From Candidatus Thorarchaeota archaeon (GTDB lineage Archaea > Asgardarchaeota > Thorarchaeia > Thorarchaeales > Thorarchaeaceae): a stretch of DNA of 12,656 nt. Location: NCBI GenBank assembly GCA_016839605.1, contig JAEOTX010000008.1:1-12656 (forward strand), read 5' to 3'. The position numbers and the translations under genes are program-made. Below the pieces are notes generated by a model. The model had not been told where the DNA came from, made no database searches, and saw only the letters and a list, made by a program, of their open reading frames with translations. Shown here one piece after another: positions 4,039-12,656 of this stretch. Each line of letters opens with the position of its first letter. Position 1 is the first letter of the stretch.

Positions 4039-4827
4039 TTGAAAGATCTGGACAAGAAGCATGAGCGATTTCTATCTGAGCTCGATCGCCGAAAGATGAA
4101 ACGACGAAAGGACTCTGATGAATTCAAAGTAGTTGAAGGTGTGATTGATACTTCTACCCTTAAGGCTCTCTACAAGCTTCTCGGCAGAGGAACAATCAAT
4201 GCTCTTTATGGCTCCATTAGCACTGGAAAAGAAGCTAATGTCTATGCTGGAGAAGACGTGGAAGGTACTCCTGTTGCTGTCAAGATATACCGTATAAGTA
4301 CTGCTGAAACAGACTATATGCTTGAGTATATCATTGGAGACCCGCGTTTCAAACGAGTCGGTCGTCGCAGCAGGACCTTGATTCCCCAGTGGGCCCTCAA
4401 GGAGTACAAGAACCTGCATAGATATCACGAGGCAGGTGTTCGCGTTCCCAAGCCTCTTGACATTCAACAAAATGTCCTCGTTATGGAGTTCATTGGTGAC
4501 GTTGATTCTGGGACACCTGCAAGATTGATGAAGAATGTAGAAATCGAGTCTCCTGTTGACACGTTCAACGAAATCATCGATATGATTCAGACAGGCTATG
4601 TAAAAGCTGGACTAGTCCATGCTGACCTTAGCGAGTATAACATTCTGTGGCATAATGGTCCTGTAGTAATAGATGTTTCACAAGCGGTCCTCAAGACGCA
4701 CGACAATGCAAAGCGTTACATGCTCCGGGATATTAGCAATATCACAACCTTTTTCCAGAAACTCGGGGTCGAAGCTGAGAACCCAATAGAGATAGCAAAA
4801 GAGATACTGTCCTCTGGTGAAGAGTAA
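4039..4827 (+). CDS. rio1: RIO1 family atypical serine kinase/ATPase
   Basis: ISTGKEANVY, AVKIYR, WALKEYKNL, NVLVMEFIG, LVHADLSEYNIL, IDVSQAV, RDISN. TTG start. Confidence 0.96.
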   Translation: MKDLDKKHERFLSELDRRKMKRRKDSDEFKVVEGVIDTSTLKALYKLLGRGTINALYGSISTGKEANVYAGEDVEGTPVAVKIYRISTAETDYMLEYIIGDPRFKRVGRRSRTLIPQWALKEYKNLHRYHEAGVRVPKPLDIQQNVLVMEFIGDVDSGTPARLMKNVEIESPVDTFNEIIDMIQTGYVKAGLVHADLSEYNILWHNGPVVIDVSQAVLKTHDNAKRYMLRDISNITTFFQKLGVEAENPIEIAKEILSSGEE

Positions 4828-5394
4828 ATGCACTTGTATGAAACTGTCAGGGTGCCAGCTGAGCGTGTTGGCGTGATTGTGGGTCGTAACGGCAGAGTGA
4901 GAAAGAGAGTAGAGAAGCTCACGAATACAAATATCGAAGTGGACTCGGAAGGCATTGTAAAGATAACTGGTCGCGAGGACACAGAGGACCCAGTCTTAGC
5001 GTGGAAAGCCAAGGACATAATTCGAGCCATGGCTCGTGGCTTCAGCCCAAAGAATGCACTGTCTCTCATCGATGAAGATTCACGTCTGGTTGTCATCTCA
5101 TTGCGCGAAGTGGTAGGGTCTTCTCCTAACCAACTAAAACGAGTAGCTGGAAGAATCATTGGAGAAAATGGACGAACCAGACGAGCAATAGAGCAGATCA
5201 CAGAGGCTAGAATATCAATCTATGGAAGAACAGTGTCTCTCATCGGATATGATCCTGGTCTCCAATATGCCCAGAAAGCCGTTGACATGCTCATTGGTGG
5301 AGCCCCCCATGGTGCAGTTTATGCGATGTTAGAAAGAGCACGACGAGATATGACCAGAATGGGGGCAGAGCTCTGGGAAGACACTGACCTTTGA
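4828..5394 (+). CDS. dim2: KH-domain pre-rRNA processing protein Dim2/Pno1
   Basis: KH GxxG loops IVGRNG and GRIIGENGRT, plus RAMARGFSP and MLIGGAPHGAVY. Directly abuts the rio1 stop (TAA-ATG). Confidence 0.93.
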   Translation: MHLYETVRVPAERVGVIVGRNGRVRKRVEKLTNTNIEVDSEGIVKITGREDTEDPVLAWKAKDIIRAMARGFSPKNALSLIDEDSRLVVISLREVVGSSPNQLKRVAGRIIGENGRTRRAIEQITEARISIYGRTVSLIGYDPGLQYAQKAVDMLIGGAPHGAVYAMLERARRDMTRMGAELWEDTDL

Positions 5395-5447
5395 TGCGAT
5401 GTAATACCCGAGCTAATAATGCCAATGTCCTTCTCAGCAGTTGAACA

Positions 5448-6965
5448 ATGACCGTGCTTAATCAGTCTGTGGAAGGTTTTCGTAGTATTTCGCCTGCTGA
5501 GTTCTTCTACAGAAACCGCCAAATGGCAGGGTTTGGGAACCCAACACAATCAGTCTACTCTGCTGTGAGAGAGCTCGTTGAAAACAGTCTAGACGCTTGC
5601 GAAGACGCACAACGTATTCCTCAGATAAGGATTGCAATAGACAATCAGTCTTCTGACATATTGAGTATCAAAGTAGCTGACAATGGCTCAGGGCTTCCAT
5701 ATCAGCATGTGCCTGAGGCATTTGGGAGGGTTTTGTACGGGAGCAAGTATGATCAGAAACAGAAGAGAGGCACGTTTGGGCTGGGAGTGACAATGGCGGT
5801 CCTGTATGGCCAGATCACTACAGATTCATCAGTAGTTGTTCATACTCAAAACAGCTCCGGGCCGGGAAGAGTCTACAGTCTCCTGATTGATGTAGAAGAG
5901 AATATGCCAATTATAGAGAGTGAACGGGAACAGGTCCGGTCTGATGATGGTACGACTGTGACTATCAAACTCAGGGGTGATTTGAAACGGGCTCGAGAAC
6001 GAGTTGTTGAATACATTCGATTGACCACAATCGCCTCGCCACACGCGGTCATCGAGTTGGACTTTGGCGGTAGCGAGATGATCAAAGTAGGTGGTTGGTC
6101 TAAGAGAGTCCCTGAAGTTCCTATACCCTCCAAACCACACCCTAGATCTGCGGATTTGGAGATATTGAGGAGATTGATCACCAAGAGCCCGTCAAAAAAG
6201 CTTCACGATTTCCTAGTCGACTCATTTCAGCAGGTGGGCTCCAGAACCGCTTCGCGCTTTCTAAAGTTCCTTGGTCTTGACTCAAGCGCTAGAATCGAAT
6301 CACTTTCCCGTGCTGATATTTCTCGCCTAAGTACGTCCCTTCAGAGGTTTGATGGATTTGGCCGTCCAGATAGCAGATGCCTCAGTCCAGTTGGCGAGGA
6401 AGCCTTCCTACTCTCTGTAAGGTCACTCTTCAGTCCATCATGGATACTGTATTCGAAGCAGAAGCCTTCCGAATGGCAGGGAAACCCCTTCTTCGCAGAA
6501 GGTGTCATTGCACTCGGTAGCAAGTTTCCAAATGTGGATACACCAACCCTCTATCGATTTACAAACAAAGTGCCCCTGCTGTATGATGCAAACGATGATG
6601 TAATGACGAAGATAATGAGGCGTCTCAATTGGAAACGCTATGGATTCTCTGGACCCCTGCCTGTCGCTCTATTCATGCATTTTGGCTCAACAAAGGTGCC
6701 TTACAGAGCGGCTGGAAAGCAGTCATTGGCGCATATGATAGAAATCGAAACAGCGGTTACTGGTCTAATTCGAACGCTAGGACGAGCATTGAGGAAGCAA
6801 GCGGGCCGCCGTGACCAATCCAGACGCGATGCAAGAAAGATGCGCGAGTTCTCAGAGATGTTTAACATTATAGCCAAGTACGGTCCAGCCCTCGCAGAAG
6901 CAGAACCCCCTTCTTCTACGGCACACATGGTCAAAACCCTCTTTGAGGTGAACACTGATGTCTGA
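5448..6965 (+). CDS. top6B: DNA topoisomerase VI subunit B
   Basis: SPAEFF..N; GHKL motifs ELVENSLDA, DNGSG, RGTFGLG, GTTV; H2TH region; RFTNKVPLLYD; WKRYG; switch-lysine motif KVPYRAAGKQS. Confidence 0.95.
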   Translation: MTVLNQSVEGFRSISPAEFFYRNRQMAGFGNPTQSVYSAVRELVENSLDACEDAQRIPQIRIAIDNQSSDILSIKVADNGSGLPYQHVPEAFGRVLYGSKYDQKQKRGTFGLGVTMAVLYGQITTDSSVVVHTQNSSGPGRVYSLLIDVEENMPIIESEREQVRSDDGTTVTIKLRGDLKRARERVVEYIRLTTIASPHAVIELDFGGSEMIKVGGWSKRVPEVPIPSKPHPRSADLEILRRLITKSPSKKLHDFLVDSFQQVGSRTASRFLKFLGLDSSARIESLSRADISRLSTSLQRFDGFGRPDSRCLSPVGEEAFLLSVRSLFSPSWILYSKQKPSEWQGNPFFAEGVIALGSKFPNVDTPTLYRFTNKVPLLYDANDDVMTKIMRRLNWKRYGFSGPLPVALFMHFGSTKVPYRAAGKQSLAHMIEIETAVTGLIRTLGRALRKQAGRRDQSRRDARKMREFSEMFNIIAKYGPALAEAEPPSSTAHMVKTLFEVNTDV

Positions 6966-8007
6966 ACACGGTCCAGTCGACACACTCAAGGCAATAGGAA
7001 AGCGAATAACTGAAGCCATAGGAGAAGGTAGATTTCCTGTAGTAGATCTTCCAAATCGAGCCACTGACAATATAGAGTTCGATTCAAAACTCAACCAATT
7101 TGTACTGGGTAGCTCTCGGGTGAAGAGAGACTCAAGCAATCTGAAACATATCCGTAGCTTTGCTCAGCTCACATGGGTGGCATACTTCGCAAAACAACTC
7201 CTAGAGAGCGATCGGACAAGCTCTTTGAGGGATCTATACTATTCAAGTGAAGCTTTTGGTGTAAGATTCAATGACCAAGCGGAATCAGACCGCATCATCA
7301 CTGATCTTGAATGTCTGACAGGTCAGCCCCGTGAAGCCTTTGGTATCTTTCCAGAGGAGCGCTCATCCATTTTCGGGTCAGTCAAGCTGAATTACACTGT
7401 TCCTGGATACGAAGGACGCGAAGTCGATCTCACCTTGAGCCCAGATGGATTTCCAATAGGGAGAGCACTGATGACCGCTGAGCCTGTTGAAACAGATGCA
7501 GAGATGATTTTGGCTGTTGAATCTGGTGGAATGTTTTCACGACTAATAGAGACCAAAGCCTGGAAACGTTATCAGGCGATTCTTGTACAGCTAGGAGGTC
7601 AACCCCCACGATCCACTCGTGCCCTCATGCGAAGACTGCATGAAGCGTTTGGACTCCCTGTGTTTCTATTCACTGATGGAGACCCCTGGGGAATGCATAT
7701 AGCTCAAGTTGTAAAAAGCGGCAGCGCTAATGCAGCCCATATCTTAGGGCTAACGATACCCTCTGCTAATTGGATTGGTGTGACTCCAGAAGACATTCGT
7801 GAATATTCATTGCCTTCTGAACCAATGGCCAGTGCAGACCTCAAACGACTCGACGAACTTGCTCGTGACATCAGATATGAAGGGCCCGACTGGCAGAATC
7901 ACATAGCTGAGTTTCGCAGCCTCAGCAGAAAAGCTGAGCAACAGGCTTTCAGCAGATATGGCATGGATTTTGTAGTTGATACCTATCTTCCTGACAAGCT
8001 AGAATAG
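6958..8007 (+). CDS. top6A: DNA topoisomerase VI subunit A
   Basis: Catalytic SLRDLYY, QAESD..I.DLE, TOPRIM AVESGG, GQP.RSTR, FTDGDPWG, KAEQQA. 8-nt overlap with top6B and SD GAGGTGA at 6945-6951. Confidence 0.96.
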   Translation: MSEHGPVDTLKAIGKRITEAIGEGRFPVVDLPNRATDNIEFDSKLNQFVLGSSRVKRDSSNLKHIRSFAQLTWVAYFAKQLLESDRTSSLRDLYYSSEAFGVRFNDQAESDRIITDLECLTGQPREAFGIFPEERSSIFGSVKLNYTVPGYEGREVDLTLSPDGFPIGRALMTAEPVETDAEMILAVESGGMFSRLIETKAWKRYQAILVQLGGQPPRSTRALMRRLHEAFGLPVFLFTDGDPWGMHIAQVVKSGSANAAHILGLTIPSANWIGVTPEDIREYSLPSEPMASADLKRLDELARDIRYEGPDWQNHIAEFRSLSRKAEQQAFSRYGMDFVVDTYLPDKLE

Positions 8008-8017
8008 TGTCAACGAC

Positions 8018-9025
8018 CTATAACACAAGCAGGAAAACTGCACCAAATGCAATAATTGCCTGCAGCAATATCAACAGAGCAACGTTTCTTTCTTCAGTGA
8101 TGTTTTTTGAAAGGTGAGGTAGCATCCAATACATTGTGAATGGTCCTACTACCTTGAGAGTCCCATCCTCTCTAGGGCTGGCAAACTTCACATATTCAAT
8201 TCCTTTGTGTCGCACATAGAGCTTGTATATGATGTATAGGAGAAAATTGAGAGCGAATGGTGCGTACAGGAATATGGCAAGTCTATCCATATTTCCCAAT
8301 ATGAGTGCTGCAGCAATGGCCGCCCCCATGGGTAACCTTCCAACGTCTCCAGGCAATATCTTTGCTGGATACCTGTTAAAGATCAGAAATGCAATGGACG
8401 CACCAAGAAGCGCACCTGCCACCACTCCTGAGTCCAAGAGTGCTTGTGTAGTTTCGGTTCCATCGATAAGCGACAGGAGCAGCACATAAAGAATCAAGGC
8501 TGCAGAGTTGATAGCCGAGAGGCCTGCCTCCAAGCCATTCATTCCACCATACATATTGGTTGAATCAATGATGAAAGTCGTCATCAGCGGAATGACAACT
8601 AGTGGATAGAGAACACCAAAGTCAACAGTTCCGACTAGTGGAATGGACATCGTTGTTGTACCCTCCTGCATCACCATCATTGGGATAGCTGCAAGCATAG
8701 GAAGTACAATCTTGGTCCGATTCTTGAAATCGAGAGTGTCATCCAAAAGTCCAATCATTCCAGCCAGGAGTATCGAGACCAGTGCGGCTAGAAGTCCAGT
8801 ATCAACTTCTTGCCCCTGAAAAGTTGTGATTCCTATCACAATCAGCAAAGAGGTTACCAACGCAAACAGAACTACGAATCCGCCTCCTTTCGCTACCTCC
8901 GGTTTGTCGGGCTTGTGGACATCTATCCCCATTATGCCCTTTTCCTTCAGTAGTCTGATGGTGTTTGGCAATGCAAGGACTACTATTGCGAATGCAAGAA
9001 TGATGACTATGAGGACTGTTAACAA
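8018..9025 (-). CDS. aglH: UDP-GlcNAc:dolichyl-phosphate GlcNAc-1-phosphotransferase (AglH/Alg7/DPAGT1-like, PNPT superfamily)
   Basis: Polytopic hydrophobic protein with G.DVHKP..P.VA..GG, GLLDD, NMYGGMNGLEAG and FNRYPAKILPGDVG. TTG start with AAGGAGA upstream. Confidence 0.85.
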   Translation of the reverse strand: MLTVLIVIILAFAIVVLALPNTIRLLKEKGIMGIDVHKPDKPEVAKGGGFVVLFALVTSLLIVIGITTFQGQEVDTGLLAALVSILLAGMIGLLDDTLDFKNRTKIVLPMLAAIPMMVMQEGTTTMSIPLVGTVDFGVLYPLVVIPLMTTFIIDSTNMYGGMNGLEAGLSAINSAALILYVLLLSLIDGTETTQALLDSGVVAGALLGASIAFLIFNRYPAKILPGDVGRLPMGAAIAAALILGNMDRLAIFLYAPFALNFLLYIIYKLYVRHKGIEYVKFASPREDGTLKVVGPFTMYWMLPHLSKNITEERNVALLILLQAIIAFGAVFLLVL

Positions 9026-9127: not shown

Positions 9128-9210
9128 GAATCCAGAGGTTCGAGCGCATCGTTCGCGGCCTATCTAGTAGACACTATACCGCGGACCCCATTGATTCACG
9201 GTGATCTGGA

Positions 9211-12189
9211 TTGAGCCTGCTGCATAGAAGAATAGGGACAATTGCGATAATGACGCTCTTCCTAACAAGTAGCGTCCTAGCTATGATTCCCTTAACAGGA
9301 ACTTGGGATTCTGATAATCTGGCTCACGATGCAACGCGGCTAAGCTCAGTGGCTGAGTCCACGAATAGTCTATCAATTTCATTTACGGACAGACACTATG
9401 GAGCTGCTGACGGGATTATTGACCCGTGGGAGTATGCATCTAACTTCACAGATTCTGTGACAGGAATAACAGCATACATGGAACATAATGGTACGACACT
9501 CTATCTCGGGCTAGAGGCTCCAACTTCTGGCTGGATTGGTGTAGGCTGGCAGAACTATACTGACAGTTTCACCACAGCTGGTCTGAACAATAGCGATCTA
9601 ATCTACGGATATTCACCTGGGACTCCGTCAGATGCAGTCCTGAGGGCTATTGGCACTGACTCTGTCACCGTTCACTATATACTGACTCTCCCCAATGGTA
9701 CAGAATTTCAGGAGGGTGATTACCCAAACGATGAATCATCAGAGCAGTTAGCTGCTCTCCCCTCGCTTGTGATGTACCGAGAGTCGATATTCGGTATGAG
9801 GATCGGAGAGGTGCGTAATTTCATCATTCCTGCGGTAGAGGCTTACAATGATCCAACCCACGATCTCTACGGACTTGACCTTGAGTATGACATAACTCTT
9901 ACTAGAATCACAAGAGATGCGCTGACCTATACAGACAATCCTGCTGACGAAAGTCAAATCGTCTATAGTGATGAGCATGGTGTGAGCACACTCCAACATG
10001 TTGCAGATGGCAATCAAGACAGAATACTGTCTGCAAATGCATCAGATGACGGTACCACCACTCAACTGGAGTACATCATTGCGATGAATAGTACTGATTC
10101 TGATGACATACCGCTCTTCAATAGCACCGATATCATGTACCCATTCTTCTTTATGTACGGCAATACAGAGGACACTGCTAAGCTTCCAGCTCAACGTACT
10201 CATTGGTCCGCGGCGCCAAAGTTTAAGCTGGTTCCAAACACAGGACCCACTATTATCGTAGTAAGTCCTACCTCGGGAGAGTCCCTTGCATGGGTTGCAA
10301 CTCTCGAGGTCAACGCAACCGACAATACTCGAGTAAAAAATGTCCAATACCGATTTGATGATGAAGAATCATGGACTGATATGGTATACAATAGTGAAAC
10401 CACCTTCTGGGAAGATCGCTTGGACTTAACAAGCTACGATGAAGGCTTCCATACTATCTGGTTCAACGCCACAGATCCAACTAATACAACCAGCATAGTC
10501 TCTGTTGACATAAACTTGGAACGCCCATTCATTCCTCTGCTTGGCATGCAGATTGATGTGGAAAGAAGAATAGGCACAGAGTCCTACATGAGGACTAGTG
10601 TACAGGACAAGTTCACCATTACAAACAACGGGTCATCTGTGATTTCTGCAATGGAAATGTATCTCCCAGTGAAGTGGGCGTCGAACCTCCTCACGGTGAC
10701 CGCAGTCGATATAGACGGAAATTCCATGGAGGTAGTACGACTTGAAGACCAGAATGGAATGATACGCTGGCGCCTTCTTTTCCAGAAAACAATCAACTAT
10801 GGCCAAGCCTATACTTTCACTACGACCATGCAGATGCACTCTCTAAACACTCTGACGCACACTACAAACAAGGAATATGACTTCACATTCCTAAAATTCC
10901 CAGTAGTTCCTTATGTCATCAGAGAAGCAGCTCTTGCCATAATTTACAGGACAGGTGACTCACAGTCCCCTGACTATCCCTCTCCAGACACTACTGCAAC
11001 AAATCTAGAGCCACTCACCATTGAAGAGTTCACTAATGCGTTTAGATCCTTCACACCACACCTCGTAGCTGATCGAACAACGGTGATCCGAGTAGATCCT
11101 TGGGGCTGGCTATCATATAAGGAAACAATTCGCGTTAGCAACATTGGTTTGTCACCTGAGAGTCTGATAGGAATCGACCTGCCTGCCTATGCTACGAATA
11201 TCAAAATCTATGACCGAGTTGGCTTGCTGGTCCAATCACATCAAGCGATAACCGGCGAGTGGAATGAGTCTAGGCATATAGGCATTGCACTCTTGGAAGA
11301 CAGGTTTGGACCAGAACAGTTCAAGCCAGGATTTTCCTACGAGTTCAACCTAGAATATGTGGTTCAGATCAACCCGTATGAGGAACTCGCAGAAGGTGGT
11401 AACCTTCTCGATGTTCCAATGGGTACGCTGAATGAGATTCTCATAGAGCACCATTGTGTTGATCTAGTTCTGCCCTATTCTGTGAATACGCTGAGTGTTT
11501 CTGGGGAATACAGACTATTACATGGCGTGTTCGACACCACTCTGAGATATGATGTGTACAATACGACCAACTTCAACCCAGCAGAAATCCAGCTCTTGTA
11601 TCAGGTATCCCTCATCATCACAGCAAGGCCACTCACCCTCACTGCAATTGTAGGTCTTATAGCTCTTGCTTATGTTTCCTACAGGGGAGTACGTCTAGGC
11701 ATTGAAGGAGGAGAGTTTGATGAGGAAGATGTTACCGTGGAAGATCAGAGACAGACAGGAGCTCCACCAGAGCTTCTTCGAGAATTTGCAAATCTCTACT
11801 CGAGGAAGACCGCTCTGAATATGGACCTTGAGAAATTGGAGGCTGCAAGACGGCGAGGTAAGGTCAAGAAGCGGGAGTTCATGATTCGAGAACGTGACAT
11901 AAAGTCCCAGCTCGATAAGATTGACTCAGGTCTGCCAAAGGTGAAAGAAGAACTATCAGGTCACGGTGCAAGATATCGCGATATGGTGTCTCAGCTTGAG
12001 CTTCATAATGAGAGGATTGAAGGTGCTAAAGCAGGTCTTCGTCAGTTGCTGCTCCGGAAAAAGAAACAGAGAATCAGTCGAGTTGCCTTTGAGAAGTCTC
12101 GTCAGGACTATCTAAAGACAATTCAGAAGGCGACAAGCGCAATTGACCGCACTCTACTTACCATCCAAGAGGAAGCCGGAGACCTTTAG
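9211..12189 (+). CDS. Ribophorin I (Ost1/RPN1)-like type I membrane protein with N-terminal DOMON-like, FKBP-type PPIase and Ig-like domains
   Basis: Signal peptide aa1-~24. DOMON-like aa~66-135 plus ~248-335. FKBP-like aa~145-234. Ig-like aa~343-437. Ribophorin-like aa~447-805 (DVERRI, PY, IRVDPWG...KETI, LPAYATNIKIYDRVG, RF...PGFSYEFNLEY). TM aa~807-824. Charged helical tail. Confidence 0.75.
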   Translation: MSLLHRRIGTIAIMTLFLTSSVLAMIPLTGTWDSDNLAHDATRLSSVAESTNSLSISFTDRHYGAADGIIDPWEYASNFTDSVTGITAYMEHNGTTLYLGLEAPTSGWIGVGWQNYTDSFTTAGLNNSDLIYGYSPGTPSDAVLRAIGTDSVTVHYILTLPNGTEFQEGDYPNDESSEQLAALPSLVMYRESIFGMRIGEVRNFIIPAVEAYNDPTHDLYGLDLEYDITLTRITRDALTYTDNPADESQIVYSDEHGVSTLQHVADGNQDRILSANASDDGTTTQLEYIIAMNSTDSDDIPLFNSTDIMYPFFFMYGNTEDTAKLPAQRTHWSAAPKFKLVPNTGPTIIVVSPTSGESLAWVATLEVNATDNTRVKNVQYRFDDEESWTDMVYNSETTFWEDRLDLTSYDEGFHTIWFNATDPTNTTSIVSVDINLERPFIPLLGMQIDVERRIGTESYMRTSVQDKFTITNNGSSVISAMEMYLPVKWASNLLTVTAVDIDGNSMEVVRLEDQNGMIRWRLLFQKTINYGQAYTFTTTMQMHSLNTLTHTTNKEYDFTFLKFPVVPYVIREAALAIIYRTGDSQSPDYPSPDTTATNLEPLTIEEFTNAFRSFTPHLVADRTTVIRVDPWGWLSYKETIRVSNIGLSPESLIGIDLPAYATNIKIYDRVGLLVQSHQAITGEWNESRHIGIALLEDRFGPEQFKPGFSYEFNLEYVVQINPYEELAEGGNLLDVPMGTLNEILIEHHCVDLVLPYSVNTLSVSGEYRLLHGVFDTTLRYDVYNTTNFNPAEIQLLYQVSLIITARPLTLTAIVGLIALAYVSYRGVRLGIEGGEFDEEDVTVEDQRQTGAPPELLREFANLYSRKTALNMDLEKLEAARRRGKVKKREFMIRERDIKSQLDKIDSGLPKVKEELSGHGARYRDMVSQLELHNERIEGAKAGLRQLLLRKKKQRISRVAFEKSRQDYLKTIQKATSAIDRTLLTIQEEAGDL

Positions 12190-12258: not shown

Positions 12259-12656
12259 ATGAAGGAATTCCTTAATCGCGATGAAGTCAGTGTCCGTGAA
12301 CTCTTGACTCCGAATACTAAGGCATTACAGATGTATCAATATCTTGCAGGATCTCCTAAGGTACAATCATACCTTCGGACAGCGAACAGGATGGCCGTTT
12401 CAAGGCTTGGGTACACTGATCATGGACATGTCCACGCCGAAGTAGCTACGTGGAACGCACTGAAGGCTTTTGACATCCTAGATGAAACATTTCAGCCCAA
12501 CATTGTAGCGGAGGGCATTGGTGACACTGATGATGCAAGACTTGTCATCCTGGCCTCTACATACCTCCACGACATTGGAATGGTTGTCCATAGAACTGAA
12601 CATCCTCAAGCATCATTGTCGTTGGCAATCCCAATTCTTGAACCCAAACTAGTTGA
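12259..12656 (+). CDS. HD-superfamily metal-dependent phosphohydrolase (partial, truncated by window end; probably COG3294-like)
   Basis: Not in the ORF track because it has no stop. Manual translation from ATG 12259: MKEFLNRDEV...ANRMAVSRLGYTDHGHVHA...LASTYLHDIGMVVHRTEH..., open to the last base. Confidence 0.88.
   Translation, partial: MKEFLNRDEVSVRELLTPNTKALQMYQYLAGSPKVQSYLRTANRMAVSRLGYTDHGHVHAEVATWNALKAFDILDETFQPNIVAEGIGDTDDARLVILASTYLHDIGMVVHRTEHPQASLSLAIPILEPKLV

Follow-up and report, generated by a model that had tools for sequence, protein, structure and literature searches.

The window analysed here is the whole stretch of 12,656 nucleotides at positions 1 to 12,656 of contig JAEOTX010000008.1, from the Candidatus Thorarchaeota archaeon assembly GCA_016839605.1. 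Its open reading frame (ORF) 9211-12189, on the plus strand, has 992 open codons and encodes a protein of 992 amino acids (aa). This gene almost certainly encodes OST1, the ribophorin I subunit of the oligosaccharyltransferase (OST), with an N-terminal head in which an FKBP domain sits inside a DOMON fold and an immunoglobulin-like (Ig) domain follows. Ribophorin I is a translocon protein regarded as a "eukaryotic signature". It has been cited as evidence that Asgard archaea were where the secretory machinery of the endoplasmic reticulum (ER) came together. In the case described here, an entire order carries, in place of the plain OST1, a subunit with chaperone-type and ligand-binding domains outside the membrane. 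The architecture is certain; its function we infer.

The C-terminal half of the protein (aa 446-992) is, by fold and by sequence profile, a genuine ribophorin I/OST1. We modelled aa 432-992 with AlphaFold (predicted local distance difference test, pLDDT, 87.9) and searched the model with Foldseek. The best eight matches were all human RPN1 or yeast Ost1 taken from cryo-EM structures of OST, with E values from 6.1e-28 to 2.1e-17. The next folds were the sandwiches of inter-alpha-inhibitor, integrin and aminopeptidase N, at E 1.6e-7 or weaker. The gap amounts to ten or more orders of magnitude. It bears out the original prediction, made from the DNA letters and their translations, that aa 447-805 resemble ribophorin I more than generic aminopeptidase-N-type sandwiches.

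The sequence comparisons agree with the fold. A profile combining the C-terminal half with canonical Asgard OST1 matches human RPN1 (6S7O_E) at E 4.7e-38, over RPN1 residues 15-604. The same mixed profile matches yeast Ost1 at E 8.7e-19 and 8WHN at 4.2e-38. Four motif pairs had been proposed from the translation: DVERRI with DVKRTV, IRVDPWG..E with IEVSHWG..E, LPAYATN..YDRVG with LPAAAQD..RDEIG, and RPL with EPL before the transmembrane (TM) helix. All of them fall in the same HMMER columns when the profile is aligned to 6S7O_E. Likewise, an exhaustive phmmer search with aa 430-850 returned 47 proteins. Beyond the long forms and their truncated pieces, these are mostly proteins of 560-620 aa that align across nearly all of the query. 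The Pfam family PF04597 was found in nine of the ten phmmer matches that were scanned, in all nine over its cut-off. The canonical matches that carry a name come from Odinarchaeia and from metagenome-assembled genomes (MAGs) of Lokiarchaeota type.

The topology is that of a type I membrane protein, with a signal sequence, an ectodomain and one C-terminal TM helix. Hydrophobic windows occur only at aa 7-30 and aa 799-821, and the TM windows start at aa 799-802. In the C-half model, a helix at model residues 370-399 (aa 801-830) aligns to the TM helix of RPN1. After it, the model shows four helices at aa 853-989. This tail is the best-conserved region of the protein, with 52-98% identity across Thorarchaeota versus 35-74% for the ribophorin ectodomain. 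A profile made from Thorarchaeota only, over the full length, matches 8WHN at E 4.6e-6 (aa 835-982), and the same profile also finds FKBPs. In PMC11417166, the crystal structure 8WHN shows the four helices of the cytoplasmic domain of OST1 from the Lokiarchaeal strain MK-D1, and this domain pulls down ribosomes, as its human counterpart does. The Thorarchaeal tail thus has, in profile and model, the fold of the ribosome-binding type, and its likeness to the MK-D1 and human domains predicts that it binds ribosomes.

Some results weigh against this identification. The Pfam scan of the ORF 9211-12189 protein gave no match to PF04597. In addition, the Thorarchaeota-only profile, searched against the sequences of the PDB, did not reach the lumenal domain of RPN1 (E up to 1). 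It means that the assignment of the ectodomain rests on transitive homology and on fold. The NCBIfam scan of the same protein gave no ribophorin match. A six-frame search of the window's genome with PF04597 missed the gene, and its sole return was a chance match on another contig (E 0.55). On the other hand, 12 of 22 close relatives do match PF04597, the best of them at E 9.6e-10. These relatives are our comparison set, 50-91% identical to the protein and named as Thorarchaeota or Promethearchaeota MAGs. Since PF04597 misses this gene, the Pfam model alone is no usable test for Thorarchaeal OST1.

The head occupies the N-terminal half. Its first residues (aa 1-26) have low pLDDT and are followed by a folded ectodomain. 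We modelled aa 30-445 with AlphaFold (pLDDT 82.4). A Foldseek search with the whole N-half model was uninformative for the DOMON part, as Ig-repeat proteins dominated the list. The DOMON part was resolved with VIA-align against 48,161 PDB representatives. It resembles NxrC (7b04_C; Z 14.5, 183 aligned residues, root-mean-square deviation (rmsd) 3.4), the gamma subunit of ethylbenzene dehydrogenase (2ivf_C; Z 14.4) and the DOMON domain of dopamine beta-hydroxylase (4zel; Z 13.1). The cytochrome domain of cellobiose dehydrogenase (1d7c) and CBM9 (1i82) follow with Z 11.5. Pfam sees this domain weakly, with PF03351 found in 2 of the 22 relatives (E 1.2e-3).

Jointly, the DOMON matches cover residues 17-315 of the N-half model, which correspond to aa 46-344. 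The FKBP domain (aa 141-238) falls within this range, which places it in a loop of the DOMON sandwich. FKBP_C (PF00254) scores 20.6 bits over aa 149-217 of the protein, slightly below the cut-off of 21.1. It is found in 21 of the 22 relatives, with a best E of 4.7e-11. A profile match to FKBP2 (2pbc, E 4.1e-5) and structural matches to SlyD (Z 12.5) and FKBP13 (Z 11.5, rmsd 2.2 over 92 residues) point to the same family. Finally, the Ig domain is of the Big_7 type (PF17957, aa 346-416; E 2.8e-8, 34.7 bits, cut-off 24.1), and VIA-align matches it, at Z 11-13.4, to the Ig-like modules in mannanases and in sulfite oxidase. Big_7 and FKBP_C are the only domains that Pfam shows in the ORF 9211-12189 protein. 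The original prediction had described a ribophorin I homologue with about 420 extra extracytoplasmic residues, and Pfam and structure recovered all three of its modules. As a refinement, the FKBP lies within the DOMON and not next to it.

The fusion is found well beyond this contig. We scanned one genome per GTDB species and obtained 77 loci, nearly all titled Thorarchaeota. Head, ribophorin domain and tail are contiguous in 67 of them, each from an independent assembly. The other ten are cut by contig ends, except for two paralogue loci. Across the 67 assemblies, one of them labelled a chromosome-level record, the frame runs uninterrupted for about 985-1010 aa. Homologues of 992 aa cover the ORF 9211-12189 protein end to end, aligned from residue 1. 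The fusion is therefore not a misassembly, which would have refuted the original prediction.

An artefact of assembly or gene calling, or a generic beta-sandwich at aa 447-805 with a chance likeness of motifs, would be an alternative. The absence of PF04597 from the protein fits such an explanation, and so does the fragmented source assembly (259 contigs, 80% complete). The recurrence of the same frame, the Foldseek E values of RPN1/Ost1 and the match of the tail to 8WHN leave it a negligible probability. Misassembly and generic beta-sandwich were both rejected, on the contiguous assemblies and on the Foldseek gap.

The head itself was surveyed in a sample of 200 Asgard genomes. All 43 genomes from the same family have it whole, as does the single genome from the sister family. 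Where contig ends do not truncate them, full-length matches have frames of about 950-1030 aa; a single one has 1233 aa. In the sampled genomes outside the Thorarchaeal order, only single Ig, FKBP or DOMON domain matches were found and no whole head. When the OST1 part was placed in a maximum-likelihood tree, a branch with support 100/99 had the 24 long forms to one side of it, which is consistent with a single fusion event. Because the architecture is confined to one order, it is a Thorarchaeal innovation and does not lie on the line to eukaryotes. This distribution does not favour the idea of a proto-ER arrangement, put forward in the original prediction.

The OST1 profile finds only ORF 9211-12189 in the window's genome (80% complete). 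It finds one frame each in three other Thorarchaeal genomes, of which one is labelled a chromosome-level record. As the sole match in four genomes, the fused protein is the OST1 of this lineage and not an additional paralogue.

Some Thorarchaeal genomes also encode the head as a free protein. These paralogues have about 570-600 aa and no ribophorin part. Two of them (L065:4836-6623 and L067:4830-6590, both on the plus strand) contain a DOMON with a nested FKBP, an Ig domain, a PKD-like domain and a C-terminal TM helix. In translation, their cytoplasmic tail is almost nil, and their identity to the OST1 head is 39%. Four further proteins (P0202-P0204 and P0207), of similar lengths, match most of the head with 47-54% identity. 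G195:C23:20701-21876 is another free paralogue. A free DOMON-FKBP-Ig membrane protein was probably the source of the module fused to OST1.

Other Asgard families have proteins of about 210 aa, composed of a signal peptide, an FKBP domain, a TM helix and a cysteine-rich, zinc-ribbon-like cytoplasmic tail. Their FKBP is 30-35% identical to the nested one and shares with it the loop GY..P.H.LYG. Their topology recalls human FKBP11. A history in three steps is likely: an outward-facing membrane FKBP would have been inserted into a DOMON protein, and the resulting module would later have been fused to OST1 in a Thorarchaeal ancestor.

The setting of the gene links it to N-glycosylation. Directly upstream, in head-to-head orientation, lies a gene for an Alg7/AglH-type polyprenyl-phosphate GlcNAc-1-P transferase. 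The closest solved structures of its product are human DPAGT1/Alg7 (E 1.6e-16), with MraY behind at 4.9e-11. This arrangement is kept in 70 of the 77 related loci. The window's genome has one AglB/STT3 (P0214, 918 aa, with a WWDYGYW motif), encoded on another contig. All 14 N-X-S/T sequons of the OST1 protein are in the ectodomain, where about 8 would be expected from composition.

An interface with AglB had also been predicted. A complex of AglB residues 1-600 with OST1 aa 447-831 was modelled and one interface was indeed returned, with a score of 0.55 versus 0.00 for the best control, a weak pass. At least 75% of contacts recur between runs, and the pLDDT of the partner is at least 78. The mark used for this score is reached by 58 of 80 solved complexes and by 2 of 110 mismatched pairs. 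Nevertheless, scores up to 0.60 include only 7 of the 80 solved complexes but both of the mismatches that pass. Since the yeast and human OST complexes have solved structures, the score may only mirror likeness to them. The model therefore supports the interface weakly.

Thorarchaeal AglB (P0214; G000:C101, L002:1408-4164) carries a C-terminal extension of about 170 aa, at aa ~750-918, which begins with KLDGNLSSSE. It is conserved among the close relatives aligned. By eye, its start resembles the opening strand motif of CBM9/DOMON type, and Pfam finds nothing there.

We considered whether the protein could have kept the ribophorin fold and the tail without working with AglB. It would then serve the Sec translocon only, as its ribosome receptor or its chaperone, and the link to glycosylation would be incidental. 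The weak AglB interface and the location of AglB on another contig fit this possibility, as does the strongest conservation being in the tail. Against it stand the Alg7/AglH-type neighbour, the status of the protein as sole OST1 homologue in the four genomes checked, together with an AglB in the window's genome, and the full-length ribophorin ectodomain, which is folded like RPN1/Ost1 from OST complexes. We regard it as improbable.

The explanation that we prefer is an OST1 whose FKBP-in-DOMON head acts at the Sec/AglB site. Taken whole, it seems to us fairly probable, a grade that blends identity with function. The tail would dock translating ribosomes at the membrane, at the site of SecYE-beta and AglB, as proposed for other Asgard OST1. 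The ribophorin domain would sit beside AglB. Outside the membrane, the head would be held on the Ig spacer and would meet chains that leave the channel and are being glycosylated. The FKBP pocket would bind proline-containing unfolded segments and possibly isomerise them, as a holdase or a foldase. The DOMON would offer a second ligand site, for which a glycan or the chain itself is likelier than haem. Sequence and models make the FKBP a likely chaperone, which would stand at the point where secreted proteins come out. We put the action of the head on nascent secretory chains at a little short of an even chance.

The FKBP pocket bears directly on this. Its residues, given in FKBP12 numbering, were mapped through a sequence alignment to FKBP2 and not through coordinates. 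All 22 sequences have Y26 and Y82, and 21 of them have the H87 equivalent. Three replacements are conservative (F36 to L or I, V55 to A, I56 to L). Four departures make the pocket non-canonical: D37 to Q or E, F46 to S, W59 to Y and F99 to Y. Q/E37, Y59 and Y99 are fixed in all 22 sequences, and F46 to S is likewise family-wide.

For catalysis by the head, several of these observations are unfavourable. The four departures make catalysis uncertain, and the strand with the F46 equivalent is absent from the N-half model. The peptidyl-prolyl isomerase activity of the nested FKBP may be low or absent, as far as aligned residues can tell. Human FKBP11 adds to the doubt. It is the closest precedent for the preferred explanation, a membrane-anchored FKBP that binds the ribosome-bound OST-A translocon, but its pocket is buried by CCDC134. 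The authors of that work argue that it does not act as an isomerase on nascent chains and favour an adaptor role (PMC12804085). The closest analogy thus gives catalysis no support, and it makes an adaptor or ligand-binding role of the Thorarchaeal head a serious rival.

Under this rival, the protein is still OST1. Its head, however, would be a ligand-binding or redox module led by the DOMON, in which the FKBP is a pseudo-enzyme inserted for structure. Candidate ligands are a glycan, a lipid-linked oligosaccharide, a component of the cell envelope, a metal and haem. The module could serve in attachment to the surface layer, in sensing or holding glycans, or in recruiting a partner through the FKBP pocket, as FKBP11 does with CCDC134. 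The sandwich best resembles the haem-b subunits NxrC and ethylbenzene dehydrogenase gamma, the dopamine beta-hydroxylase DOMON and the sugar-binding CBM9. Invariant residues in the DOMON part include D67, D71, E74, Y75, D81, E91, W113, N115, D129, Y134, D279 and E287, and the acidic and aromatic ones among them suit a sugar or metal site. The non-canonical FKBP pocket and the adaptor role of human FKBP11, with its buried pocket (PMC12804085), point the same way. The stand-alone DOMON-FKBP-Ig-PKD-TM paralogues indicate that the head can function independently of OST.

The form of this rival in which haem is bound is weakened by the alignment. Among 24 aligned sequences, with positions set by alignment and not by coordinates, the DOMON columns show neither a Met nor a Lys that is invariant. 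Two histidines, H92 and H263, reach a conservation of at least 90%, but the divergent member P0129 has neither of them. A by-eye reading without alignment suggests that the free head paralogues have lost H263 as well. A conserved haem site in the DOMON part is thus unlikely, on the aligned residues. More generally, the aromatic FKBP pocket is strictly conserved, as expected for a working peptide-binding site. The fusion to a ribosome-docking OST subunit also puts the head where unfolded chains emerge. We hold the ligand module to be rather unlikely. In the explanation that we prefer, a pocket that is both non-canonical and strictly conserved argues for a maintained binding site.

A stronger form of the preferred explanation is a co-translocational folding station. 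The tail would dock the ribosome. In the head, tethered covalently next to AglB and the SecY exit, the FKBP would bind emerging chains and the DOMON would bind their new glycans or another ligand, so that folding is coupled to glycosylation. We offer it tentatively, as a possibility with the balance against it. If true, no earlier case would exist in a prokaryote of an OST subunit that is itself a chaperone or lectin. The arrangement would be a counterpart of the pairs FKBP11-OST-A and malectin-ribophorin I of the eukaryotic ER, either by independent invention or through a common Asgard family of membrane FKBPs.

The coordinates of the features are collected in Table 1.

Table 1. Features of the fused OST1 gene, its divergent neighbour in the window, and Asgard membrane FKBPs at other loci.
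Feature	Residues	Position	Strand	Basis
Shine-Dalgarno-like hexamer GGTGAT (9200-9205) and TTG start (9211-9213)		9200..9213	+	sequence; 5 nt spacing
N-terminal hydrophobic signal/anchor segment	aa 1-26	9211..9288	+	hydropathy >1.6 in windows starting at aa 7-12
DOMON-fold beta-sandwich, first part	aa 46-140	9346..9630	+	VIA-align
FKBP domain nested in DOMON loop	aa 141-238	9631..9924	+	Pfam, profile, VIA-align
DOMON-fold beta-sandwich, second part	aa 239-344	9925..10242	+	VIA-align matches bridge the FKBP insert
Ig-like domain, Big_7 type	aa 345-439	10243..10527	+	Pfam PF17957, VIA-align
Ribophorin I/OST1 extracytoplasmic domain, two beta-sandwiches	aa 446-800	10546..11610	+	Foldseek, phmmer, profiles
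Single TM helix	aa 801-825	11611..11685	+	model, hydropathy, alignment to RPN1 TM
Cytoplasmic four-helix domain, OST1/RPN1 ribosome-binding type	aa 853-989	11767..12177	+	profile, model
Alg7/AglH-type polyprenyl-phosphate GlcNAc-1-P transferase gene, divergent neighbour		8018..9025	-	Pfam Glycos_transf_4, E 2.3e-28
Outward-facing Asgard membrane FKBP		L107:556-1191		
Outward-facing Asgard membrane FKBP		L108:535-1176		
Outward-facing Asgard membrane FKBP		L109:560-1225		
Outward-facing Asgard membrane FKBP		L110:610-1236		

The remaining gene content of the window is archaeal. It includes eIF2-beta, DUF424, NMD3, eIF1A, RIO1, a KH protein and topoisomerase VI B and A, and the minus-strand Glycos_transf_4 gene comes after the topoisomerase VI genes. 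The genes for the RIO1 kinase, the KH-domain protein and topoisomerase VI B and A lie at 4039-8007, upstream of the Glycos_transf_4/OST1 pair. About 60 of the 77 Thorarchaeal loci contain the topoisomerase VI genes. Six loci (L026, L028, L036, L044, L070 and L076) are without them, and there RIO1 and KH abut the Glycos_transf_4 gene directly.

On the 3' side of OST1, a gene at 12259-12654 on the plus strand continues past the end of the window. It has counterparts with 65-96% identity in 63 of the 77 Thorarchaeota loci, always after OST1. Its matches, searched with the L003 orthologue, are weak and HD/phosphohydrolase-like (Pfam HD, E 0.042; NCBIfam PRK10119, E 7e-4). On the minus strand, at 1538-2352, a DUF134 protein with a helix-turn-helix like that of sigma-70 region 4 adjoins a small Nitro_FeMo-Co protein of NifX/NifB type, and the pair sits among translation-factor genes.

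Asgard OST1 itself is well known in the literature consulted. No description of the FKBP-in-DOMON architecture was found there, subscription-only papers lying outside the search. In public records, these proteins go under the names "Ig-like domain-containing protein", "FKBP-type peptidyl-prolyl cis-trans isomerase" or "hypothetical protein". With such names and the Pfam miss, surveys based on names or Pfam only can easily record Thorarchaeota as having no OST1. The fused OST1 leads to a concrete and testable model of how help in folding may be coupled to translocation and glycosylation in an archaeon. As a natural fusion, it points to a functional link of FKBP with the OST and translocon, which was recently seen in non-covalent form in human cells.

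One of the closest known systems is the OST1 of other Asgard archaea (MK-D1; 8WHN; PMC11417166). It has the same ribophorin ectodomain, single TM helix and four-helix cytoplasmic domain. However, the canonical form has 560-620 aa and begins directly with the ribophorin domain, whereas the Thorarchaeal form adds about 420 N-terminal residues. Eukaryotic RPN1 (8B6L, 6S7O) and Ost1 (6EZN, 7OCI) are the best structural matches across the entire C half, with 448-605 aligned columns and the same topology and order of motifs. Nevertheless, the identity to them is only 10-13%, and they have no FKBP, DOMON or Ig head. Yeast Ost1 is without the long cytosolic domain. The eukaryotic proteins are in the ER, the Thorarchaeal one in the cell membrane.

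The Thorarchaeal sandwich shares its fold with the DOMON superfamily (Z 11.5-14.5 over 139-183 residues). It differs in being interrupted by a complete FKBP and in having no conserved Met or Lys haem ligand in the alignment. Chaperones with a peptidyl-prolyl isomerase fold that are tethered at the channel exit or at the ribosome are known, namely Escherichia coli PpiD at SecYEG and trigger factor on the cytosolic side. The principle of tethering is the same. Nevertheless, they have other folds and belong to other families (PpiD has a parvulin domain), they are separate proteins and they have no link to glycosylation.

The Asgard membrane FKBPs of about 210 aa (L107, L108) face outward like the nested FKBP. 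They have no DOMON, Ig or ribophorin domain, and with F-D at positions 36-37 they come closer to the canonical pocket. FKBP11 (9N9J, 9YGY; PMC12804085) turns up when the nested FKBP is searched by structure and by sequence. It combines, in one polypeptide, an exoplasmic FKBP at the ribosome-bound Sec61/OST-A translocon with a cytosolic element that contacts the ribosome. On the other hand, it is a separate small protein, recruited non-covalently and with its pocket buried by CCDC134. The analogy with the Thorarchaeal OST1 is one of arrangement only.

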